NCBI GenBank assembly: GCA_964510655.1
Contig: CAZEAY010000001.1
Span: 164,944-228,943, forward strand
From: an uncultured Candidatus Saccharibacteria bacterium
GTDB lineage: Bacteria; Patescibacteriota; Minisyncoccia; Phycocordibacterales; XYD1-FULL-46-19
Direction of reading: 5' to 3'
DNA: 64,000 nt
Positions 5,150 to 46,268 of this stretch are shown piece after piece. A program made the translations under genes and the position numbers. The notes under the pieces were generated by a model. The model ran no database searches, had not been told where the DNA came from, and saw only the letters and a list, made by a program, of their open reading frames with translations. The stretch's first letter is position 1. Every line of letters begins with the position of its first letter.

Positions 5150-5206
5150 AATTGAGTTTTTTTATTACTTCTTGGATTTTAATTAGTCGACTGATATAAT
5201 GTCTTT

Positions 5207-5491
5207 ATGGAAGGCGTTTTAAAGTCGGATATTTTCTTTTTTATCACCTCACTCGTAGTAATTTTGATTGGGATTGGGTCAGTTATGGTTTTCTTTTATT
5301 TGGTTAATATTTTGCGTGACGTTAAAGATGTTTCGCGCACTGTCAAAGAGGAAACTAGGGGTATTGCCGAAGACCTTTCACAATTACGAACCAAAGTGAA
5401 AACTGGTGGCGTGGTGGTTGGGGTGCTGACTTTTTTCCGTCGCTTATTGTCACGCAGTAAAAAAGGTCGTAAACATAGTAAGGGTAATTAA
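5207..5491 (+). CDS. hypothetical small membrane protein
   Basis: one N-terminal TM helix, basic C-terminus. Confidence 0.4.
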   Translation: MEGVLKSDIFFFITSLVVILIGIGSVMVFFYLVNILRDVKDVSRTVKEETRGIAEDLSQLRTKVKTGGVVVGVLTFFRRLLSRSKKGRKHSKGN

Positions 5492-5516
5492 AAAAATAAT
5501 TTTAAATATAAATATT

Positions 5517-5885
5517 ATGGCAAGTAAGAAAACAACAGGTGTTGGCGCCGCTGGGATGGTCGGGATTGCGGCTACTTTAGCTGCGGCGGTGGCAGGAGGC
5601 TATTTTCTTTATGGTAAAGATGGGGCCAAAAATCGCAAAAAGATAAAAAGTTGGATGTTAAAAGCTAAGGGTGAGGTTTTAGAACAAATGGAGAAGGGGA
5701 AAGAGATGACCGAAGAAACCTATCACAATGTTATTGATAAGGTGTCCCAAAAATATCAAGCGGTTAAGAATATTGATCCCACTGAATTGCAACAGATGAC
5801 AAAAGAATTGAAGGGTCATTGGAAAAGTATCAAGAGCCAATTGTCCCCCAAGGCTAAAAGTAAAAAGAAAGTAGCTAAAAAGTAA
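5517..5885 (+). CDS. hypothetical membrane-anchored, Lys-rich coiled-coil protein
   Basis: N-terminal TM/Gly-Ala-rich helix then charged helical region. Confidence 0.4.
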   Translation: MASKKTTGVGAAGMVGIAATLAAAVAGGYFLYGKDGAKNRKKIKSWMLKAKGEVLEQMEKGKEMTEETYHNVIDKVSQKYQAVKNIDPTELQQMTKELKGHWKSIKSQLSPKAKSKKKVAKK

Positions 5886-5892
5886 TAAAATA

Positions 5893-5936
5893 AATCAAAA
5901 ATAGCCTAAATATGGGCTATTTTTGATTTATTTTAT
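5893..5936 (+). terminator. intrinsic terminator
   Basis: aaatcaaaaatagcc / ggctatttttgattt stem plus T-run. Confidence 0.7.
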
Positions 5937-6042
5937 ATCCCCAATTTTTTGCGTGCTTTTATTTTACTCATGTTATAATTGTGGACAGTAAGCTCGCTTC
6001 TTAGTGAACAGAGTTTATGCTTTTTATTATTAGTCGATTAAA

Positions 6043-7530
6043 ATGACAGAAAGAAAAATTTTCTTACGGTTTTTGTTTTTTATTGCTATTTTTTTTATCA
6101 ACAGTGGTCGTGTTTTTGCATCTCCTAATATTTTTGATATTTCGCCGACTTCGGGTAGCCGAATCAATGGTTTTACTAGTCTTACCTTTTCTACCACTGA
6201 GCTGAACGATGTTGGTTGTCAGATTGATGGTTTAAACTGGGGCAGACCCTGTGGCGCATCAAATTTTACTTCTATCCCTGGTTGGGGCAATGTTGAGGAG
6301 GGTACCGTCACTTTATTGATTAGTGGTACCGACCAAGAAGGAAATTCTTTCTCTACTACTACGACCTATCTTAAAGACACCCTGTTGCCAATTATTAATC
6401 TAATTGGTTCCAGTGAAGAGTCTGTGGTGGTGGGTACCACCTACACTGACCCTGGAGTCACTGCCTCTAACGAATTTGGAGTGGATTTAACTGCTGATGT
6501 TGTGGTTGGTGGAGACATTGTCGATATTAACACTCTCGGAGATTATACTATTACTTATAATGTAGCTGATTCACTTGGTGATCAGGCACTTGAGGTTCGT
6601 CGGATTGTTCATATTATTCCTTTTGCTGTCACTGGTTTGTCTGACGATTTTATTCCGACCAAAAATAAAACCTGGAGTTGGTCAGCCAATAAAGCCGATT
6701 CCACTTTTCGATTTTCCTTAGACCAAGATGTTTCTGGTGTCATCGATGGAGAATATTCCAGTCTAACAGGAACTAGTACTGAAAATTTAGCTGATGGAAC
6801 TTATTATTTACATGTTCAAGCTAAAGATTTATCAGATAATGAGAGTTTAGTGACAACTGTTTCTGTCGTTATTGATAATACTCCTCCAGTTATTGATGTT
6901 CTTGGTTCTAATCCCCTGAACTTAGTTGTTGGTGAAAGCTTCACTGATCCTGGAGCCACTTCTACTGATTCAATTGACGGAAGTGTGATTACTACTTCTG
7001 CTGGCTCAGTTGATAGTAATACGGCTGGGACTTATACGATTACTTATTCCGCCACTGATCGGGCGGGTAATGATGCTAGTGGTAGTCGCACGATTGTTGT
7101 TAGTCCCGCTCCATCTCGCAGCGGAGGTGGTGGAGGAGGAGGGTCTAGTCGAGTTTCTACTTCTCAGGTAAATGTAGCTCCAACTAGCCCCGTTTCTTCT
7201 GGGATTGTGTTGGGCGCCTCCACTTTTAGATTTTTGAAAGACTTATCTTTTGGAATGAAAAATAATGATGTCAATGAGTTACAGTTACGCTTGATTAAAG
7301 AGGGATACCTAAAATCTTTGAACACTGGTTATTTTGGGTCGCAAACTTTATTGGCGGTCAAAACTTATCAAAAAAGACACCAATTGCCAGCAAGTGGGTT
7401 TTTTGGCCCAATGACTCGTGCTATGATAAATGGAGATAATCAGACTGAGCTCGATCAGACAAAAATAAATGCTCTCCTTGAGCAATTAAAATATTTTCAA
7501 ACTTTGTTAGATAAGATTAAAAATAAATAA
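6043..7530 (+). CDS. secreted surface protein: signal peptide, Ig-like repeats, Gly linker, C-terminal peptidoglycan-binding (PG_binding_1-like) domain
   Basis: signal peptide LFFIAIFFINSGRVFA; repeated ...TDPGVTA/TDPGATS Ig-like modules; GGGGGGGS linker; C-terminal VNELQLRLIKEGYL...GYFGSQTLLAVKTYQKRHQLPASGFFGPMTRAMI. Confidence 0.7.
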   Translation: MTERKIFLRFLFFIAIFFINSGRVFASPNIFDISPTSGSRINGFTSLTFSTTELNDVGCQIDGLNWGRPCGASNFTSIPGWGNVEEGTVTLLISGTDQEGNSFSTTTTYLKDTLLPIINLIGSSEESVVVGTTYTDPGVTASNEFGVDLTADVVVGGDIVDINTLGDYTITYNVADSLGDQALEVRRIVHIIPFAVTGLSDDFIPTKNKTWSWSANKADSTFRFSLDQDVSGVIDGEYSSLTGTSTENLADGTYYLHVQAKDLSDNESLVTTVSVVIDNTPPVIDVLGSNPLNLVVGESFTDPGATSTDSIDGSVITTSAGSVDSNTAGTYTITYSATDRAGNDASGSRTIVVSPAPSRSGGGGGGGSSRVSTSQVNVAPTSPVSSGIVLGASTFRFLKDLSFGMKNNDVNELQLRLIKEGYLKSLNTGYFGSQTLLAVKTYQKRHQLPASGFFGPMTRAMINGDNQTELDQTKINALLEQLKYFQTLLDKIKNK

Positions 7531-7531
7531 C

Positions 7532-8905
7532 ATGAAAATCACTAATATTTTCTCTCGGCTAGTGTTGTCGGCCTTCCTCTGCCTAATTGTTTTGGTGGCG
7601 GTAAAGGCTTCGGCCGAGACCGTCGTCATTATCAAAAATGTCAATTCTGTTAGTCGTCAAGTGGAGTTAACTAACATAGTTGAAACCGATGTAGACTTGT
7701 CTGGTTGGAAGCTTGATCAGCAAAATCTACCAGTTGGCGAGGCGAATCCTTTGATTAGTACCGATTTGTCTGGAACAATTTCTGCAATGAGTGACAGAAG
7801 TTTTGCGGTTGAGGGATTTGGTCCTGAGGGGGCTATCTTTTATCTTTATGATCAAGATAATAATCTGGTTATGAGTGCCACCCTGGCTTTGAATGAAGAA
7901 GTCCCAGTGATTTCTGGAGTTTCTCCTGTTTCAGGAAGTCGGGTGGGAAGTCTAACAACTTTAACTTTTTCCAGTAGTAAATTTAATGATCCCGGGTGTC
8001 AGGTGGATGGTTTAAACTGGGGTAGTCCTTGCCAAGGGTTGACCTTTATGGCGATTCCGGGTTGGGGCAATGTAGAAGAGGGACCATTTACCTTAACCAT
8101 TAGAGATACTAATTCTGTTGGGGTAGAAGGTAGACTAGATATTAGCTATATCAAGGATGTAACTCCACCAACTCTTGTTAGTGCTACAGCTATTGATGCT
8201 ACAACCATTAGCTTGAGCTTTAACGAATACCTAAAATCTCCTGTTTTGTCTTCAGATTTTATGGTTAGTGGTAATAGTGGTGATAATCCTGTTGTCTCGG
8301 CGACCGTTGTTGGTTCTGTTATTGTCTTAAAACTCCAAAACTCATTTTTAAGTACGGATAATATTTTATTAAACATTAATCCATTTAATCCAATTAGTAT
8401 TAAAGATACTGTTGGTAATGAGTTTATTCCAGTTGAAACAATTTCAGTGGTTAACAATATTCCTGTTGTTGTGACTTCTCCAGCGGGACAGGGAAATTCA
8501 TCTGGAGGGGGAGGAGGTAGCAGAACTACTGGTTATCTTAATTTAACTCTGGCTCCTGGCGGACAAGTTTTGGGTTTTGCCATCTTCCGCTTCAACAACA
8601 ACTTATCCCAAGGACAAAAACATCCCGATGTGATGGAGTTACAAAAACGTTTGATTAGAGAAGGCTTTATGGCTTCCGCTAGCACAACTGATTATTTTGG
8701 ACCAAAAACTTTAGCGGCCGTAAAGCTTTACCAGAAAAAAAATAAATTGCCAACCAACGGTTATGTTGGTCCAATGACTCGTTCAGTACTAAATGGTTGG
8801 TTTACAAAAAATCGTCCAGTGACTAATTTGGCCAATGTTAATCAGCAAGAATTAATTAGGTTACAAAACTTGCTAGAAATGTTGTTAAAGTTGATTAAAA
8901 AGTAG
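7532..8905 (+). CDS. secreted paralog: lamin-tail-domain (LTD)-like N-terminus, shared DGLNWG..PGWGNVEEG module, Ig-like region, C-terminal peptidoglycan-binding domain
   Basis: signal peptide; LTD-like VVIIKNVNSVSRQVELTNIVETDVDLSGWKLDQ; DGLNWGSPCQGLTFMAIPGWGNVEEG matches DGLNWGRPCGASNFTSIPGWGNVEEG of 6043..7530; C-terminus MELQKRLIREGF...YFGPKTLAAVKLYQKKNKLPTNGYVGPMTRSVL. Confidence 0.7.
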   Translation: MKITNIFSRLVLSAFLCLIVLVAVKASAETVVIIKNVNSVSRQVELTNIVETDVDLSGWKLDQQNLPVGEANPLISTDLSGTISAMSDRSFAVEGFGPEGAIFYLYDQDNNLVMSATLALNEEVPVISGVSPVSGSRVGSLTTLTFSSSKFNDPGCQVDGLNWGSPCQGLTFMAIPGWGNVEEGPFTLTIRDTNSVGVEGRLDISYIKDVTPPTLVSATAIDATTISLSFNEYLKSPVLSSDFMVSGNSGDNPVVSATVVGSVIVLKLQNSFLSTDNILLNINPFNPISIKDTVGNEFIPVETISVVNNIPVVVTSPAGQGNSSGGGGGSRTTGYLNLTLAPGGQVLGFAIFRFNNNLSQGQKHPDVMELQKRLIREGFMASASTTDYFGPKTLAAVKLYQKKNKLPTNGYVGPMTRSVLNGWFTKNRPVTNLANVNQQELIRLQNLLEMLLKLIKK

Positions 8906-8955
8906 ACATGTTTCCTGAATAAAATTTTATTCCTAACTGTTTTGACGAATAACCA

Positions 8956-10068
8956 TTGTCATTTATGGATCTACAAAAAAAGATAAGAAATTTTTTCATC
9001 CCAACTCTGCAGAACCAACTAAGTCCTTATTCCTTAAGATATAAGACCTTGGTCTTTGTAGCGGTCCTGGCGGTGGCGATTGAGTTGTTGTTCTATGCTT
9101 ACGTTAATACAGCCTTCAAGCAAAATCTTTTACTCGGTAATATTATTGACAGTATTCAAACGACAGTGGCCGATGTTTTGCCTCAAGTTATTGCTGATGA
9201 GACAAACAACAATCGTCTTGCCAACAATGAGCCGCCACTCAAAAATAATCTTTACCTAACGATGGCGGCTAGGCTGAAGGTGGATGATATGGTAAAGAAA
9301 GGGTATTTTTCTCATCAGGGGCCAGATGGGAGTATGGCTTGGAATTGGATGGATAAGGTTAATTATTCTTATTCCTATGCAGGAGAAAACTTAGCGGTGA
9401 ATTTTTTTGACGCTCGTGACGTGGTTAGTGCTTGGATGAAATCTCCCACCCATCGAGAAAATATTTTAAGTCCTCATTTTACTGAAGTGGGGATTGCGGC
9501 TGCCCGTGGTGTTTGGGAGGGTAAAGAGACCGTCTTTGTTGTCCAAATGTTTGGTGCGCCTCCTGCTCCTGATAATATTTCTACTGGCTTGGCTAAAAAT
9601 GCGACTCCGCCTAAGATTTATAAAAAACCAGCCGAGTCCTCTCCAGTTGCGGTTTCTACCTCTAGTGTTAGTACTTCAACGGCTGTTACTCATTTAGCTG
9701 TTGCTACCTCTACAGTTATGGCAACATCGGTAGTTAACGGTGCCATTATACCAGGCAAAAGTCTTACCACTGTTCAAAAATGGTTAGTATCACCTCGTCA
9801 CTTGGCGAGAGATGCTTATATCGTTTTAATGATTTATATGTCTTTAGTCCTATTGATTCCAATGTTTATGATTTATCACCGTCATGTATCGGCTAGTCAA
9901 TGGCTGAGGTTCAAAGAAATATTTATTTTGTTCCGTCGCCCAATCACCTCGGCTCTTGTTACCTTCATCTTCATTTCATTGGCAATGTACCTAAACTATG
10001 CCTGGGGTAAGGCTGGTTCCAGTGTCCATAATATGTTTATTGAGGTGGGGGTATCCAAACAAATATAA
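8956..10068 (+). CDS. CAP (SCP/PR-1, YkwD-like) domain protein with membrane anchors
   Basis: LYLTMAARLKVDDMVKKGYFSHQGPDGSMAWNWM...AGENLAVNF...AWMKSPTHRENILSPHFTEVGIAAA; hydrophobic N- and C-terminal segments. Confidence 0.75.
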   Translation: MSFMDLQKKIRNFFIPTLQNQLSPYSLRYKTLVFVAVLAVAIELLFYAYVNTAFKQNLLLGNIIDSIQTTVADVLPQVIADETNNNRLANNEPPLKNNLYLTMAARLKVDDMVKKGYFSHQGPDGSMAWNWMDKVNYSYSYAGENLAVNFFDARDVVSAWMKSPTHRENILSPHFTEVGIAAARGVWEGKETVFVVQMFGAPPAPDNISTGLAKNATPPKIYKKPAESSPVAVSTSSVSTSTAVTHLAVATSTVMATSVVNGAIIPGKSLTTVQKWLVSPRHLARDAYIVLMIYMSLVLLIPMFMIYHRHVSASQWLRFKEIFILFRRPITSALVTFIFISLAMYLNYAWGKAGSSVHNMFIEVGVSKQI

Positions 10069-10112
10069 TAGGAGTATTATATAAACAATGGTTAATTTAA
10101 AGTATCACTAAT

Positions 10113-10487
10113 ATGGCTAAAAAAATCTTAATTGTTGACGATGATCCAAATATTACCGATGTTTATTCGATGAAATTTGCGGCTGATGGATATACTGTCG
10201 AGGTGGCTCCTAATACTAAAGAAGGTGAGGGAAAGATTGCCGGGGGCTATATTCCTGATTTGATTTTGTTGGATATCATTATGCCGGGTGATAATGGAAT
10301 TCAACTATTAGAACGTTTAGTTAAAAATCCTGTTTTAGCTAATACTAAAATTGTCATTTTCTCTAACTTAGATCAGCGAGCGGATATCGATGAAGAGATT
10401 GTAAAGAAGATTGCCGGTTACTATCTAAAGGTAAATATGATTCCTTCTGATATGTCTAAGAAAATTGCCGAGGTCTTGGCTGATTAA
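10113..10487 (+). CDS. orphan single-domain response regulator
   Basis: KILIVDDDPNITDVYSMKFAADGYTV...LILLDIIMPGDNGIQLLERL...KIVIFSNL. Confidence 0.85.
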   Translation: MAKKILIVDDDPNITDVYSMKFAADGYTVEVAPNTKEGEGKIAGGYIPDLILLDIIMPGDNGIQLLERLVKNPVLANTKIVIFSNLDQRADIDEEIVKKIAGYYLKVNMIPSDMSKKIAEVLAD

Positions 10488-10538
10488 ATTAAATAAAAAA
10501 AAATATTTTAGAAAACTGAAATCTCTTATAAAAAGATA

Positions 10539-10573
10539 ACCCCCAGATTGCTCAGTGCCGTCTGGGGGTTTCA
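10539..10573. terminator. bidirectional hairpin between convergent genes
   Basis: aacccccaga-ttgctcagtgccg-tctgggggtt; T-run follows on the minus strand. Confidence 0.65.
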
Positions 10574-10575
10574 TA

Positions 10576-11229
10576 TTAGGACTCTTCATGGTCATGAAGC
10601 AGGGTTGATCTTTGGATTGCCCGTTGAATGGCGAGCCAAACTTCTTCCTTGCTGTCCTCGGAGTTTATCGAGTGGAAGTGTTGGGGTAGACGACCGCGCA
10701 GGTGGTCCAACATAGGTACGGTTTGAGTTTGATAGACTGCCCACCGTTTCTCCCATTTTTCGAGGGTGTCGTCTGAACGCCGCTCTTCTCCTTGTTTGCC
10801 TCGATTAAGGCACCTCATCTGTGAGGTCTCTTTCGAAATAACCAGAGAGAGAACGATTGGAGAAAGCATTCTTTCTCGATCAGAATACTCACAAATTCTC
10901 AATGCCTGAAGCACTGTTCGGGGACAGCCGTTTAGAATAACTGTTCCCTTGGTCTTTGCCACTTCATTGAAAACTTGCTCCAAAATGGTTTGGTCGGGTA
11001 TTAAGCCCCCACTGCTCGCTAATTGGACCAAGTCGGGTATGCGTCGACATATGTCGCCAGTTCCGATGTAGTGTGAGCCCTTGGTCCAACTCACCAACTT
11101 CTTCTTCCCATGCTCATCTTTCCCGGCGCCGGGACCACCCTCCAAAATGACGAAGCGGCGCCCAATATTAATTATTGGCGGCGCCTCCACGGTTATCGCT
11201 GTAAAAGATTGCAATATCCTCCACCTCAA
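10576..11229 (-). CDS. adenylate-kinase-family (NMP kinase-like) protein, GC-rich cassette, divergent P-loop
   Basis: RRFVILEGGPGAGKDE (P-loop with GKDE instead of GKGT), IGTGDICRR, GGLIPDQTIL, VILNGCPRT (like LLDGFPRT); no ATG at the 5' end (TTG or other start); GC visibly about 50%. Confidence 0.6.
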   Translation of the reverse strand: MRWRILQSFTAITVEAPPIINIGRRFVILEGGPGAGKDEHGKKKLVSWTKGSHYIGTGDICRRIPDLVQLASSGGLIPDQTILEQVFNEVAKTKGTVILNGCPRTVLQALRICEYSDRERMLSPIVLSLVISKETSQMRCLNRGKQGEERRSDDTLEKWEKRWAVYQTQTVPMLDHLRGRLPQHFHSINSEDSKEEVWLAIQRAIQRSTLLHDHEES

Positions 11230-11523
11230 CTTTCTGCAAAGATCGTGGGATATAAAATACGGTTATCACCGTATTAGTCCGTTCATTATTTTATCGTTTT
11301 TGAAAAAGTTGTCAAATTTTAATTAGTGAAAATATGGCTTAATGAAGGCGTATAATTAATAGTATGTGGTCACTAATAAAATAATTACCGTCTCTTGTCG
11401 TGGTCAGGAATATTTTACTCGCCGTCGCTCGTAAAATTTCACGAAGCCTCTCGGCACGATTTACTAATCGCCTGCCTCGTGGTTTTGTGTGCTCACAAAA
11501 CATCATTCCGGCTTCCACATATT

Positions 11524-11556
11524 AAAAAAATCCGAAGCAGTTCGGATTTTTTTAAT
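11524..11556 (-). terminator. terminator downstream of tRNA-Ala(UGC)
   Basis: tccgaa-gcag-ttcgga hairpin flanked by A7/T7 runs. Confidence 0.65.
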
Positions 11557-11559
11557 ATG

Positions 11560-11630
11560 TGGACCCTAGGAGAATCGGACTCCTATCTCCCGGATGCAAA
11601 CCGGGTGCTCTACCACTAAGCTAAGGGCCC
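11560..11630 (-). tRNA. tRNA-Ala (anticodon UGC)
   Basis: reverse complement GGGCCCTTAGCTTAGTGGTAGAGCACCCGGTTTGCATCCGGGAGATAGGAGTCCGATTCTCCTAGGGTCCA folds as a cloverleaf; G3:U70 Ala identity pair; 7-nt anticodon loop TTTGCAT; CCA not encoded. Confidence 0.85.
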
Positions 11631-11911
11631 CTAAAACATTTTTTACTAAAAATGTTCGGGCGATCATTTAAATTACTATTTAAATGATTTAGCCAAACAT
11701 TTCTCTGAATACTACCTTAAAATGACTCTAAAATCAAAGAAGAATATTATTTTTTCTTCTCATTATAATGCTCTTTTAAAAAGAGAAATGGAAACCAGAG
11801 TATAAATAGAATGCTTTCTAATTCGAATTTCATTATCTGAATTTAGCAGAGGTAATCTTAAGAAGCAAATTATTTTATAGGGTTTATTTTGCTTTATTGA
11901 TTATTTGAGTA

Positions 11912-11955
11912 AAATAAAGGCCCCTGATGATGTGTTATACCACCAAGGGCCTTCT
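11912..11955 (-). terminator. intrinsic terminator for the 11962..12390 cassette
   Basis: aaggccc...gggcctt stem followed on the minus strand by TTTATTTT. Confidence 0.5.
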
Positions 11956-11961
11956 GTGAAG

Positions 11962-12390
11962 TTAAATCATGGATCTGATTTGGATTATATGAGCAGATCT
12001 GCTCAGACGTCCATACCCACAATCAACTTCGATTTTGTCGCCGACTTCGATATGATCGAAAAGTTCCTTGTTGACTTTGGTGTAGATATCCACACTGTCA
12101 ATTTTGAAACCAATTCGATACGATTCTTTGCGGCGCATCGGAACGAGAACTTTTCCGGTGTGAAGATAGATTATGCCAGCAGGGGACACATGCTTATCTT
12201 CAACCACCGTAATGACGGTTCTCCCCCGGTCTATTCCAACAGTATCAACCAGATCGAAGGCGAATAGCGCCAAACCTCCAAGCAGTGCGAGTGTTAACAT
12301 CAGCACCGTTGCGGCTACAAATCGATCTAGTAGTGTCGAGTGGCGTGAAAAAACAGCAATCCAGAGATCATTCCACATGTCTTTAATCAT
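11962..12390 (-). CDS. GC-rich cassette: membrane-anchored hypothetical protein (143 aa)
   Basis: ATG (MIKDMWND) preceded by AAGGGAGGG SD; N-terminal TM helix then beta-rich domain; perfect sigma70 promoter upstream. Confidence 0.55.
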   Translation of the reverse strand: MIKDMWNDLWIAVFSRHSTLLDRFVAATVLMLTLALLGGLALFAFDLVDTVGIDRGRTVITVVEDKHVSPAGIIYLHTGKVLVPMRRKESYRIGFKIDSVDIYTKVNKELFDHIEVGDKIEVDCGYGRLSRSAHIIQIRSMI

Positions 12391-12446
12391 GGTCAGACCC
12401 TCCCTTGTTTCTTTCGGAGATAGTTTGTGAATTTTCACCTTTTTAG

Positions 12447-12475
12447 ATTATAGCAAATATTTCACTAATTGTCAA
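12447..12475 (-). promoter_or_regulatory. consensus sigma70 promoter TTGACA-17-TATAAT
   Basis: minus-strand tTTGACAattagtgaaatatttgcTATAATc, about 50 nt upstream of the SD/ATG of the 11962..12390 gene. Confidence 0.65.
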
Positions 12476-12706
12476 ATATTCATCTTATAAAAAAGTTTTA
12501 GAAATTTACCCCCCTATTCAGGGTTTGATGCAATAATCTTTGCTCTGCTTTAGTGTAATTTTTTTTGTGACCCCACCAGGAGTCTTTCCTTACAGGAACA
12601 GTACAGCTTTCCCATTTGTTCGTTTATCTACTCACAAATATGGGAGAAGCTTTTCGACTTCCGGACGTAAGCAAAGCAGTTTGCTTACTTAAGTTCACTG
12701 AACAAA

Positions 12707-12740
12707 AATAGCAGCTATTACAGCTGCTATTTTTTACCAG
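12707..12740. terminator. bidirectional hairpin downstream of tRNA-Ala(GGC)
   Basis: aatagcagct-attac-agctgctatt flanked by A and T runs. Confidence 0.6.
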
Positions 12741-12811
12741 TGGACCTACCGGGAGTTGAACCCGGACCTGTTCCATGCCATGGAACCGTTCTACCGCTAT
12801 ACTATAGGCCC
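12741..12811 (-). tRNA. tRNA-Ala (anticodon GGC)
   Basis: reverse complement GGGCCTATAGTATAGCGGTAGAACGGTTCCATGGCATGGAACAGGTCCGGGTTCAACTCCCGGTAGGTCCA; G3:U70; T-stem CCGGG/CCCGG with loop TTCAACT; anticodon loop ATGGCAT. Confidence 0.8.
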
Positions 12812-12890
12812 TAAAAATAACAGTATTTACTATAACATATTTATTTAAATTTAAAAGTTTTTAGGGGATCTTTTCTTTTAACTTTTTTCT

Positions 12891-12934
12891 GTCCCAATAG
12901 TTTGGACGACCGTCCAAACTATTGGGACATTTTT
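12891..12934 (+). repeat. perfect 18-bp-arm palindrome plus T-run (terminator-like or operator-like)
   Basis: gtcccaatagtttggacg-ac-cgtccaaactattgggac then ATTTTT; no upstream plus-strand gene to terminate. Confidence 0.6.
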
Positions 12935-12980
12935 AATTAGTAATTTGATAAAGTGTCGTAAATTTGTTAAATTTAACACT

Positions 12981-13211
12981 ATGTTTAAAGAATTTTTAAT
13001 GAAAAAGATGTTGAAGGCTAAGGGGGTGCCAGAGGATCAAATTGATATGGTTATGACTTTGGTGGAAAAAAATCCCGCTTTGTTCACTAAAATATCCGAA
13101 GAAATCCAAGCTAAAATAAAAGGTGGTCAGGATCAGATGCAGGCTAGTATGGAAGTGATGTCTAAGTATAAAGATGAGGTACAGAAGATAATGGCTGAGA
13201 TAAAACAATAA
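12981..13211 (+). CDS. hypothetical small helical protein
   Basis: MFKEFLMKKMLKAKGVPEDQIDMVMTLVEKNPALF...; start ambiguous (12945, 12981 or 12999). Confidence 0.35.
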   Translation: MFKEFLMKKMLKAKGVPEDQIDMVMTLVEKNPALFTKISEEIQAKIKGGQDQMQASMEVMSKYKDEVQKIMAEIKQ

Positions 13212-13215
13212 TTCT

Positions 13216-14304
13216 ATGTCCTTAAGTATTGGCATTGTCGGGTTACCTAATGTCGGTAAATCCACCCTATTTAATGCGTTAACGCGCAAAAAAGTTCCGG
13301 CGGAGAATTATCCGTTTTGCACCATCGATCCATCGGTGGGTATTGTGGCTGTACCTGATGAACGAGTGGATATATTAAATGTTTTTTCTAAGTCGGCTAA
13401 GAAAATTCCCGCCGCCATTGAATTTGTGGATATTGCTGGTTTAGTCAAAGGAGCCGCCGAAGGCGAAGGTTTGGGTAACAAGTTTCTGTCTCATATTCGT
13501 GAGGTAGATGCTATCGCTGAAGTAGTTAGAATTTTCAAGGACGGAAATATTACTCATGTTTCCAATGAAGTAAATCCTATTGACGATATTGAGACTATCA
13601 ATCTGGAGCTTATCTTGGCTGACTTACAAACTGTTTCAAAACGTTTGGCTAATCTCTCTCATGACACTAAGAGGGGAGATAAAAAGGCAATGTTGGAAAG
13701 TGAATTTACTGCTCGTCTCCAAAAAGTTTTAGAGGAGGGAAAGATGGCTTCTACGATAAAAGATGAATTAACTGATGATGAAAAAATATATTTTCACAAT
13801 TTACATCTATTGTCCGGTAAGCCGATTTTATATGTATTGAATAAAAAAAGTGGAGCAGAACTGGTAGATACTGCACCCCTACTGAAATACTTAGCTGATT
13901 TAGGCGCCAATTACTGTTATGTTGATGCTCGAATTGAGCAGGAATTGTCTGATTTTGAAGGTGAAGAAAGAAAAATGTTTAAGGCTGAACTGGGGGCGAC
14001 CGATGATGATGGAATTGATAAATTGATCACAGAAAGCTATAAGATGCTCGATCTAATTACTTTTTTAACAACAGGAGAGGATGAAACGCGGGCTTGGACT
14101 ATTAAAAAAGGCTCGACGGCACCAGTAGCTGGGGGAGCGATTCATACAGATTTTACGGAAAAATTTATTAAAGCAGAAGTAGTTTTTTGGAAAGATTTAA
14201 TTGAAGCTGGATCGTATGGTTCGGCTCGTGAAAAAGGTTTGGTTCGAACAGAAGGAAAAGAATACATAGTTAAAGATGGGGACGTTATAGAGTTTAAGAT
14301 TTAA
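13216..14304 (+). CDS. ychF: ribosome-binding ATPase YchF (Obg-family GTPase)
   Basis: IGIVGLPNVGKSTLFNALT, NYPFCTIDPSVGIVAVPDERVD, DIAGLVKGAAEGEGLGNKFL, C-terminal TGS-like VIEFKI. Confidence 0.9.
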   Translation: MSLSIGIVGLPNVGKSTLFNALTRKKVPAENYPFCTIDPSVGIVAVPDERVDILNVFSKSAKKIPAAIEFVDIAGLVKGAAEGEGLGNKFLSHIREVDAIAEVVRIFKDGNITHVSNEVNPIDDIETINLELILADLQTVSKRLANLSHDTKRGDKKAMLESEFTARLQKVLEEGKMASTIKDELTDDEKIYFHNLHLLSGKPILYVLNKKSGAELVDTAPLLKYLADLGANYCYVDARIEQELSDFEGEERKMFKAELGATDDDGIDKLITESYKMLDLITFLTTGEDETRAWTIKKGSTAPVAGGAIHTDFTEKFIKAEVVFWKDLIEAGSYGSAREKGLVRTEGKEYIVKDGDVIEFKI

Positions 14305-14362
14305 ATTATTGACTTTTATCATATAAGTGATATAATTAAAAATAGATTGGAGTCAACTCACC

Positions 14363-14641
14363 ATGGATAAAAACTCGAAATGGATGGCTATTTCGGGAAT
14401 TACTGGACTATCATTCTTTTTGATCGCAAACTTTACGAATGTCTTCACGGGTTCAAGTGTTCTCGCGGGTTGTCTACAACTTTGTGTGAATGCATTTGTG
14501 TTCGTGACTTGGAAGAAATCATTCGTACAAAGTAGAGGGTTCAAAAAGTTTGTTGCATTCTTTGGAATTGTAGTGCCGTGTGTCATGGCAAGCATTACAA
14601 TCTGGAGAGTGCTGATTCCAGCCATTCTTCGTCTAGATTAA
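14363..14641 (+). CDS. hypothetical small membrane protein
   Basis: two or three hydrophobic helices; own terminator. Confidence 0.4.
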   Translation: MDKNSKWMAISGITGLSFFLIANFTNVFTGSSVLAGCLQLCVNAFVFVTWKKSFVQSRGFKKFVAFFGIVVPCVMASITIWRVLIPAILRLD

Positions 14642-14686
14642 CCCCGCAAAATCTCAAAGTAGATTTGTGGGGTTTTTGTTTTTTAG
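14642..14686 (+). terminator. intrinsic terminator
   Basis: ccccgcaaaatct / agatttgtgggg stem then TTTTTGTTTTTT. Confidence 0.75.
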
Positions 14687-14798
14687 TTTCTTATCTAAAA
14701 TTTTGACAAATAGTATTATGGATAGTGATTAATTCCAATATTTAAAAAAACAGACCCCTTTGCTGAAGCATTGGGGTCTGAAGAAGGTTCAGTGGTGG

Positions 14799-15437
14799 TC
14801 ATTTGGTGCCGAACACACGGTCTCCTGCATCTCCCAGACCAGGGAGAATGTAGGCCTGTTCGTTCAGTTTGCGATCAATGGTTGCAGCAATGATCTGAAC
14901 AGAGGGATAAGTGCTTTGAATCTCCTTGATTCCCTCAGGCGCTGCGATAATGCAGAGGAAGGTGATTTTTTTGCACCCCCATTCTGCTACTTGCGAGATC
15001 GCGCTCTTGGCTGAGCCGCCGGTAGCCAGCATGATGTCGAAAATCAGCGAGTGATGATTATCGAGCACCCGTTCGACTGTCGGTTGTGGATAGTAGCGTT
15101 GGGGTTGGTGTCCATTGGCATCATCACGGAACATGCCGAGATGATACACTGGGGATTCTGGGAAGAGGATTCTTGCTGGTGGAATCATTTCCATTCCCGC
15201 ACGCATGATTGGTATCAGGGCGATGTTTTCCGCTACCCGATACCCATCTGTCACCTCCAGAGGTGTTTCCACCTGTCCAGTTTGGATCTCGATATAGCGC
15301 AGAGCTTCGAAAAGTAACGGGACGCTGATTTCGCGGATCAGATGGGCAAAACGGTCAGAGGGCGTGTCTTTGTTTCGCAGTGCGGTCAGCATGAGTTGAA
15401 TTGCCCTGTGCCCAGAGAGATTAATCACGCGATTCAT
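14799..15437 (-). CDS. upp: uracil phosphoribosyltransferase (GC-rich relative to neighbours)
   Basis: FDIMLATGGSA (like DPMLATGGS), ILPGLGDAGDRVFGTK (like IPGLGDAGDKIFGTK), PIMRAGMEM; GGAAGGAG SD upstream. Confidence 0.9.
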   Translation of the reverse strand: MNRVINLSGHRAIQLMLTALRNKDTPSDRFAHLIREISVPLLFEALRYIEIQTGQVETPLEVTDGYRVAENIALIPIMRAGMEMIPPARILFPESPVYHLGMFRDDANGHQPQRYYPQPTVERVLDNHHSLIFDIMLATGGSAKSAISQVAEWGCKKITFLCIIAAPEGIKEIQSTYPSVQIIAATIDRKLNEQAYILPGLGDAGDRVFGTK

Positions 15438-15601
15438 TTTTCACGTGCTCCTTCCAAAAAATATAAAAACCTAAGTGGTTCCGTTTAAAACCCTAACATA
15501 TAAGGGTAAGGGTTTCCAGTTTCATAAATCAAAAAATGAAGAATCTTCCTTTTTCCCTTATTTAAGATTATTATATTTAGTATATTAGCTAATTTAATTA
15601 T

Positions 15602-16177
15602 ATGGACCAACTAGACGGCATTAAGCCACGAAAAAACTTCAATGTTTTGAAATGGCTTCTAATTATTAGTATTGTTATTGTTTTGAACCTGTTTTTTAAT
15701 TTTGCGATTATGTCGGTTTATCCGGCTCCTAAATATGAAGATTTTTGTAAAGCTGAACAGGTAAACGTTCAACCGGTCACTAAAGAAGCTTGTGTGGTCA
15801 TTGGTGGGCAGTGGAATGAATCATCTTCGGTGGAAAAAGTTGTTCCTGAAAGAGCCAGTGAACCACAAAAACTCCAAACCAATAGTTATTGTGATACCTC
15901 TTTTACTTGTCGGAAAAACTTTGAAGACGCTAATAATACTTATCAAAGAAATGTTTTTGTTGCCCTGATTGTCTTAGGTGTTATTTCTCTGATTGGCGGA
16001 TTTGTCTTGGCTTCTGTTTCTGTGGTTTCTCTTGGCCTCTCTTTTGGCGGTGTCTTATCCCTAGTAATTGCTTCAATGCGTTACTGGTCAGCGATGAATG
16101 AATATATTAGAGTGATCATTTTGGGAATTGCTCTGATTGTTCTGATCTGGATCGGCATGAAAAAATTTAAGGACTAG
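15602..16177 (+). CDS. hypothetical membrane protein
   Basis: N-terminal TM, Cys-containing extracytoplasmic region, C-terminal TM helices. Confidence 0.45.
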   Translation: MDQLDGIKPRKNFNVLKWLLIISIVIVLNLFFNFAIMSVYPAPKYEDFCKAEQVNVQPVTKEACVVIGGQWNESSSVEKVVPERASEPQKLQTNSYCDTSFTCRKNFEDANNTYQRNVFVALIVLGVISLIGGFVLASVSVVSLGLSFGGVLSLVIASMRYWSAMNEYIRVIILGIALIVLIWIGMKKFKD

Positions 16178-16203
16178 AGGTAATAAAGAATAGAGAATAA
16201 AGA

Positions 16204-16240
16204 ATTTAGAATAAAAAAACCCGGAAGAACTCCTTCCGGG
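16204..16240 (+). terminator. intrinsic terminator (flanked by roughly 20-bp imperfect inverted repeats at 16184-16207 and 16261-16285)
   Basis: aaaaaaacccggaag-aact-ccttccgggttttttt. Confidence 0.8.
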
Positions 16241-16370
16241 TTTTTTTGGTTAATTTTTATGTTCTATATTCTTTATTCTATGATCCTGTTTTATGTCTAG
16301 CCATACTGGTTTTTTTGTTGTAATATACAAGAATACTTTTTAACTTATTAAGTTTTATTTAACAGGATAA

Positions 16371-19241
16371 ATGAAAAAATACGATCCAAAGAAGATTGAG
16401 GGTAAGTGGCAGAAGGTTTGGGATAAATCTGGCATTTACCAGGCTAAAGATTTTTCTAAAAAACCCAAGTGGTATTCTTTGATCGAGTTTCCTTATCCTT
16501 CTGGTGATGGTCTTCATACTGGCCATATTCGGAGTAATACCGCAATGGATATTATCTCGCGTAAACGGCGTATGGAGGGCTACAACGTCCTTTATCCTAT
16601 TGGTTGGGATGCTTTTGGGTTACCAACAGAAAATTACGCTATTAAAACAGGTATCCATCCGGTGAAGGTAACGAAAAAAAATACTGATATTTTTCGTAAG
16701 CAACTTAAATCGGTAGGCTTTTCTTTTGACTGGAAACGCGAAATAAATACTAGTGATCCTAATTACTACAAATGGACTCAGTGGATTTTTTTGCAATTAT
16801 TCAAAAAGGGGCTGGCTTATAAACAAAAAACTTTAATCAACTGGTGCCCAAAAGATAAGACTGGACTGGCTAATGAGGAGGTGGTCAATGGTTGTTGTGA
16901 ACGCTGTGGAACCGAGGTGGTCAAAAAAGAAAAAGAACAGTGGATGTTGGCTATCACTAAATATGCGGATCGCCTTGATAAAGATTTAGATAAGGTGGAC
17001 TATTTGCCCCAGATTAAAACCCAACAACGTAATTGGATTGGTCGCTCTGAAGGAGCGGAGATAAAATTCAAAATTCAAGAGGTAAAAGGCCAAAGTGAAG
17101 GTCAAAATAGAAAAGTTGAACACGAAATTTCGGTTTTTACTACTCGTGCTGATACGTTGTTTGGGGTAACTTATGTTGTTTTGGCGCCAGAACATGAATT
17201 GGTTAATAATTTAAAGTTGGAAATTAAAAATTGGGAAGAAGTAAGTAACTATATTAAAAAGGTTAGCAAGGAAAGTGACACCGAGCGCACAGCGGAAAAT
17301 AGAGAGAAGACTGGTGTCAGGTTGGAGGGTATTACCGCCATTAATCCCGCCAATCAGGAAGAGGTACCGGTTTTTATTGCCGACTATGTTTTAGCTTCTT
17401 ATGGCACAGGAGCGGTAATGGCTGTACCGGCCCACGATGAACGAGATTGGGCTTTTGCAAAAAAATATAATTTGCCAATTAAAGAAGTTATCATTCCAGA
17501 GCGAATTGATAAGAGAAATCCACCGGTGGCTGGCAAAAAAGAAGTCGAAAGACAAAATGTTCATGCCATTGTTTACAATCCGCAGACTAAAAAATACCTC
17601 TGTCTTAATTGGAAAAAATATAATTGGAAAACTTTCCCAATGGGGGGAGTGGAAAAGGGTGAAAATGTTGTGGAAGCAGCTAGGCGTGAAGTTTTGGAGG
17701 AGACTGGCTATTCCGATTTAAAACTTGTCAGAGTTCTTGGCGGACAGGTAAAAGCTGAATATTTTGCTGCTCATAAAGACCAAAATCGAGTGGCTTATAC
17801 GAGTGCTGTTTATTTTGAATTAAAAAGTGAACAAAGAGAATCGGTGACTAAGACCGAAGAAGAGATGTATGATCTTGTGTGGTCGGATTGGAATGACATT
17901 ACGGTTGACAAAATGACTCACGCGGAAATGGATGTCTGGTTGGAACGATTAGAAAATGAAGAGAGATCATTTACTGATTATGGTATTTTGATTAACTCTG
18001 GACAATTTAACAAACTTAGCAGTGAACAAGCTAAAAAAGAAATCACTAAATTTGTTAAAGGAAAAATTGTCACCAAGTATAAATTACGTGATTGGGTTTT
18101 TTCTCGTCAGCGTTATTGGGGTGAACCAATTCCTCTGGTTTATTGTGAAAAAGACGGATGGGTGGCGGTACCAGAAAAAGAACTGCCGGTTGTTTTACCT
18201 AATGTAAAAAATTATCAGCCGTCTGATGAGGGGGAATCCCCACTGTCTCGTGATAAAAAATGGGTAAATACCACCTGTCCAACTTGTGGCGGTAAGGCGA
18301 CGAGAGAAACTGACACCATGCCAAACTGGGCCGGATCATCTTGGTATTCTTTGCGCTATATCGATCCAACTAATAAAAAGAGTTTGGCTGATGTGAAAAA
18401 ATTAAAATATTGGCAACCAGTAGATTGGTATAATGGTGGAGCTGAACATATTACCCTACACCTCCTTTATTCTCGTTTTTGGAGTAAGTTTTTATATGAT
18501 CTGGGTATGTCTCCAGCCGACGAACCTTATCTAAAAAGAACTACCCATGGGATGATTTTGGGGGCGGGAGGAATTAAAATGTCAAAATCTAAAGGTAATG
18601 TGGTAAATCCAGACACGACCGTAAAGACTTACGGGGCGGATACTCTGCGTGTTTATGAAATGTTTATGGGTCCTTTTGATCAGTCTATTGCTTGGAGTAC
18701 TGAAAGTATTATTGGTTCTCGCCGATTTTTAGATAAGGTTTGGAATATTGGCCAAAAAACCACCAAAATTAAACCAACAGAGGAATTTGAGATTTTGACC
18801 AACAAAACAATTAAAAAGGTAGGGGAAGATATTGAGGTCATGGGTTTCAATACGGCCATTTCTGCGATGATGATGTGGGCTAACGAAGCTGACAAGCTGG
18901 ACCAGGTTCCCATTTCTTCACTTTTGGATTTTCTCAAAGTTTTAGCTCCTTTTGCCCCTCATTTAGCCGAAGAGTTGTGGGCGAGTTTGGGTAACAAAAA
19001 AACCATTCACTTGGAAAAGTGGCCTATTTACGATGAAACTAAATTAAAAGATAAGACGGTAACAATTGTGGTGCAGATCAATGGTAAAGTTCGCGATTCT
19101 TTTGAAACAGAAGCGGGGATTAGTCAGTCAGACATGGAGGAAAAGGTCTTAGTAAGAGAGGTTGTAAAAAAATGGATGGAAGGTCAAACCGTTCGTAAAA
19201 TCATCTATGTTCCAGATAAGTTAGTGAATATTGTTTTATAA
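16371..19241 (+). CDS. leuS: leucyl-tRNA synthetase with an inserted Nudix hydrolase domain (about residues 378-536, nt 17502-17978)
   Basis: HTGHIRSNTAMD (HIGH), TTRADTLFGVTY, GTGAVMAVPAHDERDWAFAKKYNLPIK, KLRDWVFSRQRYWGEP, KMSKSKGN; insert contains a perfect Nudix box GGVEKGENVVEAARREVLEETGY (17643-17711). Confidence 0.95.
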   Translation: MKKYDPKKIEGKWQKVWDKSGIYQAKDFSKKPKWYSLIEFPYPSGDGLHTGHIRSNTAMDIISRKRRMEGYNVLYPIGWDAFGLPTENYAIKTGIHPVKVTKKNTDIFRKQLKSVGFSFDWKREINTSDPNYYKWTQWIFLQLFKKGLAYKQKTLINWCPKDKTGLANEEVVNGCCERCGTEVVKKEKEQWMLAITKYADRLDKDLDKVDYLPQIKTQQRNWIGRSEGAEIKFKIQEVKGQSEGQNRKVEHEISVFTTRADTLFGVTYVVLAPEHELVNNLKLEIKNWEEVSNYIKKVSKESDTERTAENREKTGVRLEGITAINPANQEEVPVFIADYVLASYGTGAVMAVPAHDERDWAFAKKYNLPIKEVIIPERIDKRNPPVAGKKEVERQNVHAIVYNPQTKKYLCLNWKKYNWKTFPMGGVEKGENVVEAARREVLEETGYSDLKLVRVLGGQVKAEYFAAHKDQNRVAYTSAVYFELKSEQRESVTKTEEEMYDLVWSDWNDITVDKMTHAEMDVWLERLENEERSFTDYGILINSGQFNKLSSEQAKKEITKFVKGKIVTKYKLRDWVFSRQRYWGEPIPLVYCEKDGWVAVPEKELPVVLPNVKNYQPSDEGESPLSRDKKWVNTTCPTCGGKATRETDTMPNWAGSSWYSLRYIDPTNKKSLADVKKLKYWQPVDWYNGGAEHITLHLLYSRFWSKFLYDLGMSPADEPYLKRTTHGMILGAGGIKMSKSKGNVVNPDTTVKTYGADTLRVYEMFMGPFDQSIAWSTESIIGSRRFLDKVWNIGQKTTKIKPTEEFEILTNKTIKKVGEDIEVMGFNTAISAMMMWANEADKLDQVPISSLLDFLKVLAPFAPHLAEELWASLGNKKTIHLEKWPIYDETKLKDKTVTIVVQINGKVRDSFETEAGISQSDMEEKVLVREVVKKWMEGQTVRKIIYVPDKLVNIVL

Positions 19242-19315
19242 GTGACCTCTGGTCTACGGGGTTGACCCCTGTAGTAGATTTTGACCAAAGGAGTCTTTCA
19301 AAATTCACTACGGGG

Positions 19316-19344
19316 TTGACTTATATTTCAAAAGATGATACAAA
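19316..19344 (+). promoter_or_regulatory. sigma70 promoter TTGACT-17-TACAAT
   Basis: ggggTTGACTtatatttcaaaagatgaTACAATag upstream of the 19406 gene; the 13-mer CTACGGGGTTGAC also occurs at 19253. Confidence 0.55.
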
Positions 19345-19405
19345 TAGACTATCGTAAAATTAATCAAAAGAAGATTTAATACGTTTTATTTATCAATAAA
19401 TTATT

Positions 19406-45135: not shown

Positions 45136-45151
45136 AGCCGCAACAATCAAA

Positions 45152-45193
45152 CCCTGCCAATTTTGAAAGGAACTTTGGCAGGGTTTTTTATTT
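45152..45193 (+). terminator. intrinsic terminator
   Basis: ccctgccaa-ttttgaaaggaact-ttggcaggg then TTTTTTATTT. Confidence 0.75.
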
Positions 45194-46099: not shown

Positions 46100-46176
46100 C
46101 TTTTCATTATAACACATAAAACTACAATGATTAATACTGGTGTTAATACTTATTTTAGAATGATGTTTGAAAAAAG

Positions 46177-46205
46177 CTGGATATATTTGACATATACACC
46201 AATAT
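46177..46205 (+). promoter_or_regulatory. sigma70 promoter TTGACA-17-TATCAT for the 46269 cassette
   Basis: TTGACAtatacaccaatatatgcTATCAT; AAGGAGG SD before ATG. Confidence 0.55.
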
Positions 46206-46268
46206 ATGCTATCATTAGAATAGAGTCTTAAACAGACCAAGTATTGAAAATCTACAAGGAGGTGCGGG

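Follow-up and report, generated by a model that had tools for sequence, protein, structure and literature searches.

How did the gene for a P-loop kinase, and a second open reading frame (ORF) with a promoter of its own, come to lie against a pair of alanine tRNA genes in a Patescibacteria genome, and could the kinase still work? The question is raised by 64,000 nucleotides (nt) of contig CAZEAY010000001.1 (assembly GCA_964510655.1, positions 164,944 to 228,943), a stretch that we call the window and whose own coordinates are used throughout. A sequence-only reading of this DNA had taken the two tRNA-Ala genes to bracket one small acquired island, with a kinase that was either catalytically altered or a recent pseudogene. 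From a comparison with related genomes, it appears probable instead that three foreign single-gene units were gained in separate slots of a conserved backbone, within a zone of rapid gene turnover. The lineage of the window would have taken up about 1 kb in each slot, namely an adenylate-kinase-family gene (ADK-like), a membrane-anchored ORFan, and a stretch carrying a uracil phosphoribosyltransferase (UPRTase) gene.

Empty sites in a conserved backbone

The host is a Patescibacteria bacterium of Paceibacteria type; among the matches listed, the best relatives of its YchF protein come from Paceibacteria/Parcubacteria-type Patescibacteria metagenome-assembled genomes, with identities of up to 71% (species-representative genomes). 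Closer relatives, whose loci are referred to below by numbers such as L087, were found through the 90% protein clusters of YchF and of the response regulator (RR), and through a metagenome scan with a 77-amino-acid (aa) protein. Their loci, three earlier ones and 30 from metagenomes, were compared with the window by tRNA scans and by tblastn with the window proteins. The conserved backbone order is CAP protein, RR, tRNA-Ala(UGC), tRNA-Ala(GGC), small protein, YchF, orf191 and LeuRS. The RR receiver gene (10113..10487, plus strand; Pfam Response_reg, 57.6 bits) forms the left flank of the first slot, and its product is 96% identical to that of L083, 88% to that of L087 and 80% to those of L088 and L089. 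To the right of the tRNA genes the backbone continues with the small conserved 77-aa protein (12978-13211, plus strand), which is kept in the 30 metagenome loci, and with YchF (13216-14304, plus strand; TIGR00092, 411 bits).

According to ARAGORN, the window has two tRNA genes and no more, both tRNA-Ala and both on the minus strand: tRNA-Ala(UGC) at 11559-11630 and tRNA-Ala(GGC) at 12740-12811, which score 66.6 and 57 bits, respectively, with Rfam RF00005 (gathering threshold 29). The sequence-only reading had called both genes correctly, as well as the G3:U70 pair, which is seen in the aligned sequences of each. CCA is encoded by neither. The pair stands beside the small-protein and YchF genes in L003, L084/85, L087, L088 and L089, and a single tRNA-Ala(GGC) does so in L082, L086, L095 and L096. 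Its occurrence there in these relatives implies that the pair is ancestral in the clade, and its members are ordinary, functional tRNA genes. The earlier picture of a tRNA pair bracketing one island is not supported.

L087 (88% identity for both RR and YchF) carries CAP, RR, tRNA-Ala(UGC), tRNA-Ala(GGC), small protein and YchF, ordered and oriented as in the window, both tRNA genes being on the minus strand. Its RR gene ends 54 nt short of the first tRNA, and about 140 nt separate the two tRNAs, versus 1.06 kb and 0.92 kb in the window. Having both tRNAs and lacking the kinase gene and the inter-tRNA gene, it is a true empty site of the kind that the sequence-only reading had suggested looking for. 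Insertion boundaries were set by blastn, using L087 against the window for the first two. Segments 215-932, 976-1055, 1070-1143 and 1199-2214 of L087 correspond to window positions 9757-10490, 11550-11630, 11751-11823 and 12740-13816. Insertion 1, the ADK-like unit, accordingly spans 10491..11549 (1059 bp), where L087 has 43 unaligned bases instead, and insertion 2, the ORFan unit, spans 11824..12739 (916 bp), where L087 has 55 nt (1144-1198). The tRNA-Ala(UGC) of the two genomes is 97.5% identical over the tRNA and a 9-nt trailer. The region upstream of it (11751..11823, minus strand), 74% identical to L087 1070-1143, belongs to the backbone and not to an insert, and is probably the promoter of this tRNA gene. 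Insertion 3, which comprises orf92 and the UPRTase gene, spans 14304..15582 (1279 bp) as delimited by blastn of L089 against the window; in L089, YchF (to 5541) is followed by 83 nt and then by orf191 and LeuRS, with no UPRTase between them.

None of the ADK-like, ORFan and UPRTase genes was found by tblastn in any of the related loci. The arrangement that the sequence-only reading had treated as one unit is thus conserved in one part and private in the other: the tRNA pair is shared by relatives, and the kinase and ORFan genes occur in no related locus.

Insertions 1 and 2 share a common build. Read along the minus strand, each consists of a tRNA 3' end, a long palindromic terminator, a hairpin-rich spacer of about 200 nt, a strong promoter with a Shine-Dalgarno (SD) sequence, a single GC-rich ORF and a terminator. 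In insertion 2, the ORF is the 142-aa ORFan (P0167; 11962..12390, minus strand, ATG at 12390), preceded by the SD sequence AAGGGAGGG at 12398-12406, 7 nt before the ATG, and by a promoter, TTGACA-17-TATAAT, at 12475..12447 (minus strand). The perfect promoter and the SD sequence had been noticed from the sequence alone, and a promoter scan agrees (12/12 positions, plus an extended -10 TG). An intrinsic terminator with a 16-bp stem and a T-run follows at 11954..11916 (minus strand). The predicted protein has an N-terminal helix, one predicted transmembrane helix and a beta-rich C-terminal part. Its sole match among 5.8 G proteins is itself, no family match was obtained with Pfam, NCBIfam, PHROG or PADLOC, and tblastn against 50,697 phage records returned nothing; a single-sequence AlphaFold2 (AF2) model, with a pLDDT of 53, was too low for use. 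The protein is recorded from NCBI only.

The third unit had been missed by the sequence-only reading. Its UPRTase gene (14799-15437, minus strand) scores 203.7 bits versus 114 with PRK00129 and 196.9 with Pfam UPRTase, and 188.4 with TIGR01091, below the cutoff of 208.35. It is a full-length match to Upp (PRK00129/TIGR01091), and differs in having a third-codon-position GC content (GC3) of 0.545 within a genome of 0.34. The gene has its own SD sequence, a terminator hairpin at about 14750-14780 and a weak promoter-like site. Its nearest homologues are 46-48% identical, the named ones belonging to Clostridia, Chloroflexota/Anaerolineales and Ignavibacteriales, with no Patescibacteria name among them. 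The other gene of the insertion, orf92 (14363-14641, plus strand, 92 aa), has host-like GC.

In composition, the three genes stand out from a window with an average GC of 38%, in which the ORFs have a mean GC of 0.390 (sd 0.045) and a mean GC3 of 0.344 (sd 0.066; 61 ORFs). GC and GC3 are 0.495 and 0.528 for the ADK-like gene, 0.444 and 0.447 for the ORFan and 0.515 for the GC of the UPRTase gene. The earlier description of GC-rich genes thus holds well for the kinase, and the effect is graded, the ORFan being only mildly deviant. By leave-one-out codon-usage likelihood, five GC-rich ORFs, these three and two more that lie far off (44626-45135 and 46269-46880), take ranks 1-5 among the 61, and all five deviate from the host mean by more than 3 sd. 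Because the plus strand holds nearly all other genes of the first 44 kb, the three are also oriented against the local gene direction. None of them has a relative at >90% identity anywhere searched.

The cargo beside or between the tRNA-Ala genes differs from genome to genome. To illustrate, L088/L089 (YchF 77%) read CAP, RR, an ORF of 172 or 158 aa, GIY-YIG, tRNA(GGC) on the minus strand, tRNA(UGC) on the plus strand, small protein and YchF. L084/85 (YchF 90%) have tRNA(UGC) on the minus strand, 2.7 kb, tRNA(GGC) on the plus strand, a 144-aa minus-strand ORF, small protein and YchF, and their cargo includes GIY-YIG, an AAA_28 P-loop kinase-like protein and a PurF-like amidophosphoribosyltransferase. 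In L082 (YchF 92%), tRNA(GGC) on the plus strand is followed by a 619-aa ORF, the small protein, an 88-aa ORF, YchF, two other ORFs and LeuRS. In L083 (RR 96%) a Cys-rich secreted ORF of 175 aa comes after RR, in L003 (YchF 68%) a gap of 460 nt that holds a small membrane ORF separates the two tRNAs, and L086 carries PPDK_N and isochorismatase genes in the backbone slots. The slot after ychF behaves likewise, insertion 3 being missing in L089 and replaced by different cargo in L082, L084 and L088. No remnants of the relatives' cargo (GIY-YIG, the 619-aa ORF and others) were found in the window.

Logan contigs, which are independent assemblies, here of two runs (SRR14271372 and SRR14271365), equal the window at 100% over 6227-11729, 12769-15634 and 14740-20348. 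They span RR/ADK-like/tRNA(UGC), small protein/YchF/orf92/UPRTase and UPRTase/orf191/LeuRS, respectively, and bridge both junctions of insertion 1 and both of insertion 3. These junctions are therefore not an assembly artefact.

A divergent adenylate-kinase-family protein

The ADK-like ORF occupies 10576..11229 on the minus strand (217 codons from the first TTG). It matches Pfam ADK (PF00406) at 45.8 bits versus a cutoff of 26.8 and carries the P-loop GGPGAGKDE, both in keeping with the sequence-only reading. The missing ATG start is likewise real, there being no in-frame ATG ahead of the P-loop. In the public annotation the gene (P0001, 212 aa) begins at TTG 11214, behind GGTGGAGG at 11218-11225, and this is likely the true start; the poor definition of residues 1-20 in an AF2 model agrees with a start there or later. 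A sigma-70-like promoter, TTGACA-16-TAAAAT, unlisted by the earlier reading, lies at 11315..11288 (minus strand; 11/12 positions). At the other end, a hairpin read from the sequence, CCCCCAGA-13 nt-TCTGGGGG (10540..10568), has T-rich tails on both strands and would likely terminate transcription in both directions, that of the RR gene and that of the ADK-like gene converging on it; a plus-strand terminator scan gave a smaller overlapping stem at 10551-10566.

All 20 NCBIfam adk and UMP-CMP models score the protein far below their cutoffs, the best being PRK14527 (65.9 versus 154), and on these scores it is classed as a superfamily member and not as an orthodox Adk equivalog. Among 5.8 G clusters and 1.84 G representatives it matches only itself. 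The next-best single-domain matches reach about 35% identity and about 68 bits, and higher summed scores come from long multi-ADK-domain proteins. PHROGs gave only a weak partial thymidylate-kinase match (E 0.0013), PADLOC gave none, and tblastn against the 50,697 phage records returned only phage adk genes at 26-31% identity.

The fold is that of the family. An AF2 model built from the alignment has a pLDDT of 91 and a pTM of 0.86, with only the first 20 residues poorly defined, and in it the three-domain CORE/NMP/LID fold is predicted. Foldseek places AK1-type and bacterial short-LID adenylate kinases first (best E 1e-13), all of the top 50 PDB matches are adenylate or UMP/CMP kinases, and a PDB sequence search agrees. 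Short-LID adenylate kinases of PF00406, such as 2CDN (Mycobacterium tuberculosis Adk), 1Z83 (vertebrate AK1) and 3CM0 (Thermus thermophilus Adk), have the same fold, domain order and short LID, with TM scores of 0.82-0.86 and rmsd values of 1.9-2.6 A (1.9 A for M. tuberculosis Adk). They also have in common with the ADK-like protein G-x-x-G-x-G-K, TGDxxR, PRTxxQ, the LID Arg, R-x-D-D and a C-terminal Arg. The ADK-like protein differs from them in its identity of only about 25-35%, in reading GKDE for GKGT and NGCPR for DGFPR, in some 20 extra N-terminal residues if the first TTG is used, and in having no known sister sequences.

Conserved positions were read from an alignment of the ADK-like protein with 76 single-domain homologues (77 sequences), the comparison with Adk/Cmk families that had been proposed for judging the P-loop substitution. 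Every invariant column (G36, K37, G74, G101, R104, R139, R151, D153 and R162) is kept, as are most of the nearly invariant ones (G31, G34, G58, R62, P103, Q108, R143, D154, T170 and P172). The protein thus retains the P-loop Lys, the AMP-site and LID arginines, the Asp-Asp pair and the Gln of PRTxxQ. In the NMP site, GTGDICRR (R62) is kept and NGCPRTVLQ preserves R104, T105 and Q108. The LID and C-terminal catalytic residues R123, R156, D158, D159 and R167 of Escherichia coli Adk are all present, as R139, R151, D153, D154 and R162. The P-loop keeps G31, G34, G36 and K37 and departs from the canonical G-x-P-G-x-G-K-G-T through G38D (Gly in 73/76 homologues) and T39E (Thr in 67/76), and the Mg2+-anchoring Asp motif is altered from DGFPR to NGCPR through D100N (Asp in 75 of the 76) and F102C (Phe in 50/76, Tyr in 18/76). 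In sequence terms, then, this is a divergent adenylate-kinase-family protein without a close relative and with an unusual Mg2+/P-loop configuration.

Orthodox adenylate kinases have Gly immediately after the P-loop Lys, a position at which classical Walker-A NTPases carry a Ser or Thr that binds Mg2+ directly. Position 100 corresponds to Asp84 of E. coli Adk, which holds Mg2+ through two waters; in the D84A mutant the bound Mg2+ is lost and kcat falls from 330 to 1.8 s-1 (PMC11313852). The Mg2+ site of the ADK-like protein would accordingly have been rebuilt, with Asn for the Asp84 equivalent and Asp-Glu for the Gly-Thr that follows the Lys; the enzyme would then either be slow or have its metal bound by the new P-loop carboxylate instead. 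Only two of the 77 aligned sequences lack the DGFPR Asp, the ADK-like protein (Asn) and P0053 (Gly), and both have a side chain after the P-loop Lys (Asp and Thr, respectively) within a common motif, GGPGxGK[D/T]EH. This pairing of Asp loss with a post-Lys side chain looks like coupled change and not random decay.

Most likely, the protein is expressed and folds as a short-LID adenylate kinase, as judged from the model, and probably retains phosphotransferase activity, its metal site being rebuilt or weakened. Since the phosphoryl-transfer machinery (P-loop Lys, five Arg and the Asp-Asp pair) and the adenine-reading Gln are kept, the most likely reaction on these residues is ATP + AMP = 2 ADP. 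The PRTxxQ Gln, which reads the adenine of AMP and which at least 90% of the aligned homologues share, makes AMP a likelier substrate than UMP or CMP. UMP-CMP kinases (TIGR01359; 1UKY, 2UKD) likewise have the short-LID ADK fold and are structural neighbours at a TM score of about 0.8; the ADK-like protein reaches 43 bits versus the TIGR01359 cutoff of 207.6, and retains the adenine-reading Gln.

The strongest rival account of the gene, unlikely in our judgement yet deserving a full hearing, makes it a dead or dying relic, a pseudo-kinase or pseudogene inactivated by G38D, T39E and D100N and lacking a proper start. Three of the family's most conserved positions are indeed altered, the D84A change costs E. 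coli Adk about 180-fold in kcat, there is no ATG, and the NCBIfam adk scores are all far under cutoff. Such a relic would not be expected to keep an uninterrupted frame of 217 codons between a near-consensus promoter, a GGAGG SD sequence before an in-frame TTG, and a terminator, nor to yield so confident an AF2 model, nor to retain all of the invariant Arg, Lys and Asp residues of the phosphoryl-transfer site, and P0053 again speaks for coupled change. The recent pseudogene of the sequence-only reading is thus disfavoured, and its other suggestion, a catalytically altered kinase, is plausible from the residue pattern. Rather doubtful, in turn, is the bolder possibility of an active and undescribed adenylate-kinase sub-type, in which the Mg2+-holding carboxylate would have moved from the DGFPR Asp to the post-Lys position, binding the metal directly. 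It is an attractive special case, hinted at by the metal-capable side chains (Asp and Thr) that follow the Lys in the two sequences lacking that Asp.

How the genes arrived

Absence of the three genes from relatives, together with their foreign codon usage, makes gain in the lineage of the window the parsimonious reading. The route would have been illegitimate or homology-assisted recombination at a hotspot, and not integrase-mediated. The small acquired island proposed earlier is retained in so far as the genes are lineage-specific and compositionally foreign; it gives way to separate single-gene insertions where one element had been supposed.

Several observations weigh against gain of three working units. 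Gain is preferred to loss on grounds of parsimony and composition, and the GC shift of the ORFan is mild (about 1.5 sd). For none of the three genes could a donor be traced, an oddity if the transfer was recent; this points to unsampled or fast-evolving sources. Insertion 2 (cassette B, 11730-12768) lies outside the retrieved Logan contigs, which stop on either side; it may be polymorphic in the sampled population, or merely fragmented in those assemblies. As for the kinase, which is known from a single sequence, much of its activity could have been lost through the Asn at the Asp84 position. Finally, a phmmer search of all six-frame ORFs showed canonical adk to be absent from the 64-kb window; nor does the window include the usual secY-adk neighbourhood, the ORF at 30267-31589 not being SecY.

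A classical tRNA-targeted island, in which a tyrosine or serine recombinase put a single element with kinase and ORFan as cargo into a tRNA-Ala 3' end, would explain why compositionally foreign cargo lies immediately 3' of each tRNA-Ala gene and why relatives have an empty site. It can also draw on an inverted-repeat element of L088 (described below), which, with its second GGTCCAC, indicates that something mobile can target the 3' end of tRNA-Ala(GGC). Such an island should have left an enzyme and repeats, and neither was found. None of the ORFs from 8.9 to 16.2 kb encodes an integrase or recombinase; the coding-strand ORFs of at least 110 aa are CAP, RR, ADK-like, ORFan, YchF, UPRTase and orf191 (no family). 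Pattern searches with the tRNA 3' ends, allowing up to 3 mismatches in 18-20 nt, gave no second copy of either one in the window, a k-mer scan gave no direct match of at least 7 nt to a tRNA 3' end besides the other tRNA, and a repeat finder run on 9500-13300 returned no tRNA-derived direct repeat. The direct repeats that the sequence-only reading had suggested looking for in the flanks are therefore lacking, and without them or an integrase the locus is not a classical tRNA-integrated island. Two separate 1-kb single-gene inserts are, moreover, far below typical island size, and we regard this explanation as very improbable. The likeness to tRNA-associated islands and core-gene-flanked hotspots is real as regards foreign cargo 3' of tRNAs, empty sites and cargo that varies. 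It ends with the locus having no integrase or att direct repeats, inserts of about 1 kb with one GC-rich gene each, and a third slot, after ychF, that has no tRNA. An integron-cassette reading was also considered and dropped: there is no attC-like site and no integron integrase, and the cassettes carry their own promoters.

Patescibacteria genomes are under reductive evolution, which lends some appeal to an ancestral arrangement, with the kinase, ORFan and UPRTase genes long established at the locus and since deleted from L087, L089 and others; the failure to find a donor lineage for any of them fits this too. Old residents should have ameliorated to a GC3 of 0.34, not 0.45-0.55, and loss would have to explain why the three genes occur in none of the related loci, why the same slots hold different cargo in each relative, and why the kinase and ORFan have no relative above about 35% identity in about 15 billion public proteins. 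This makes the loss scenario hard to credit. An assembly or binning chimera, in which GC-rich pieces of another organism were wrongly joined, is suggested by the sharp GC shifts, by retrieved Logan contigs that end near the tRNAs and by the failure to recover cassette B among them, and is nevertheless close to untenable given that Logan contigs of two runs are 100% identical across the regions of insertions 1 and 3 and that the inserts are bounded by host intergenic sequence alignable to relatives.

Further features of the locus and their meaning

Both tRNA genes run into long palindromes. Directly after tRNA-Ala(UGC) stands a perfect one (11514..11563; 23-nt arms, 4-nt loop; inverted repeat I2, 100% complementary), whose A-tract/stem/T-tract layout is that of a bidirectional terminator and whose tRNA-side arm takes in the last 5 nt of the tRNA. 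The putative terminator after tRNA-Ala(GGC), at 12690..12748, is an imperfect palindrome (27-nt arms, 81% complementary; inverted repeat I3), one arm of which overlaps the final 9 nt of that tRNA. L082 likewise has, at 1-110, a palindrome with arms of about 30 nt at a tRNA-Ala 3' end, including TAGGTCCAC, so that where cargo lies 3' of tRNA-Ala, in the window and in L082, a long palindromic terminator reaches with one arm into the tRNA 3' end. At the empty site of L087, where 976-1000 and 1150-1198 were inspected, such a hairpin is absent. Selection for insulation, quasi-palindrome correction or an insertion footprint may account for these tRNA-overlapping palindromes.

The spacer between the tRNA terminator and the ADK-like promoter (11316..11513, minus strand, about 200 nt), part of insertion 1, is GC-richer and contains several hairpins. 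Folding of 11316-11560, terminator palindrome included, gave a minimum free energy of -66.9 kcal/mol (z = -5.5); the strong z-scores of the post-tRNA spacers are due mainly to the terminator palindromes. A structured RNA in these spacers was considered and rejected, Rfam at E up to 1 giving sub-threshold noise only. A search for a shared element 3' of tRNA-Ala genes, in which 26 downstream regions were compared all-against-all, was equally unproductive, the sole cross-genome match being a 39-nt hairpin-containing motif (TAAGxAAGCnAACTGCTTnGCTTnCGTnCGGA; 82%, E 4e-5) between window positions of about 12652-12690 and L089 4048-4085. It sits in the spacer after tRNA-Ala(GGC) in the window and just 3' of tRNA-Ala(UGC) in L089, and the two stems differ by paired changes.

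Some features are peculiar to the relatives. In L088 (3960-4080), inverted repeats of 17 nt (CCCCGTTAGAAATT... / ...AATTTCTAACGGGG) bound an element of about 100 nt that lies 3' of tRNA-Ala(GGC) and is followed by a second copy of the tRNA's GGTCCAC; from its sequence, the element has the look of a miniature inverted-repeat element that duplicated its target at the 3' end of the tRNA. Small GIY-YIG nuclease genes lie directly beside tRNA-Ala in L084 (4407-4676; Pfam E 4e-14), L088 (3646-3954; E 5e-17) and L089 (3330-3575; a close homologue of the L088 gene), and are possible drivers of breakage and turnover at the locus. Between the tRNA-Ala genes of L084/L085, at 4962-7026, the PurF-like and AAA_28 kinase-like genes have host-like GC and repeat the nucleotide theme of the ADK-like and UPRTase genes of the window.

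Elsewhere in the window, two further GC3 outliers, the ORFs at 44626-45135 (0.48; a weak GRDP-like match) and 46269-46880 (0.58; no family match), lack close relatives at 90% identity and flank an S9 peptidase gene (45188-46309, minus strand); the region 44626-46880 may be a second plasticity spot. The LeuRS gene (16371-19241, 956 aa) encodes a NUDIX hydrolase domain inserted after the editing domain (PF00293, residues 394-525, E 3.6e-16), an unusual fusion. The domain is also in the Pfam list of the identical Logan-contig protein, and the LeuRS of L003 appears to share it.

Nothing is overturned by these findings: tRNA-adjacent hotspots and orphan genes are expected in these bacteria, and this is gene gain at a variable spot and no new kind of system. 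The locus offers a clean, base-resolved case of three single-gene gains with matching empty sites, and the kinase a natural experiment on the Mg2+ site of adenylate kinase, a much-studied model for phosphoryl transfer. Patescibacteria, unable to make their own nucleotides, depend on salvage, and which salvage genes are acquired, and where, bears on the adaptation of such tiny genomes. Two of the three gained genes belong to nucleotide metabolism, the UPRTase (uracil + phosphoribosyl pyrophosphate -> UMP) and the protein of the nucleoside monophosphate (NMP) kinase family, and a pyrimidine NMP kinase would suit the neighbouring acquired UPRTase. This nucleotide theme may be coincidence, or it may reflect selection for salvage capacity.

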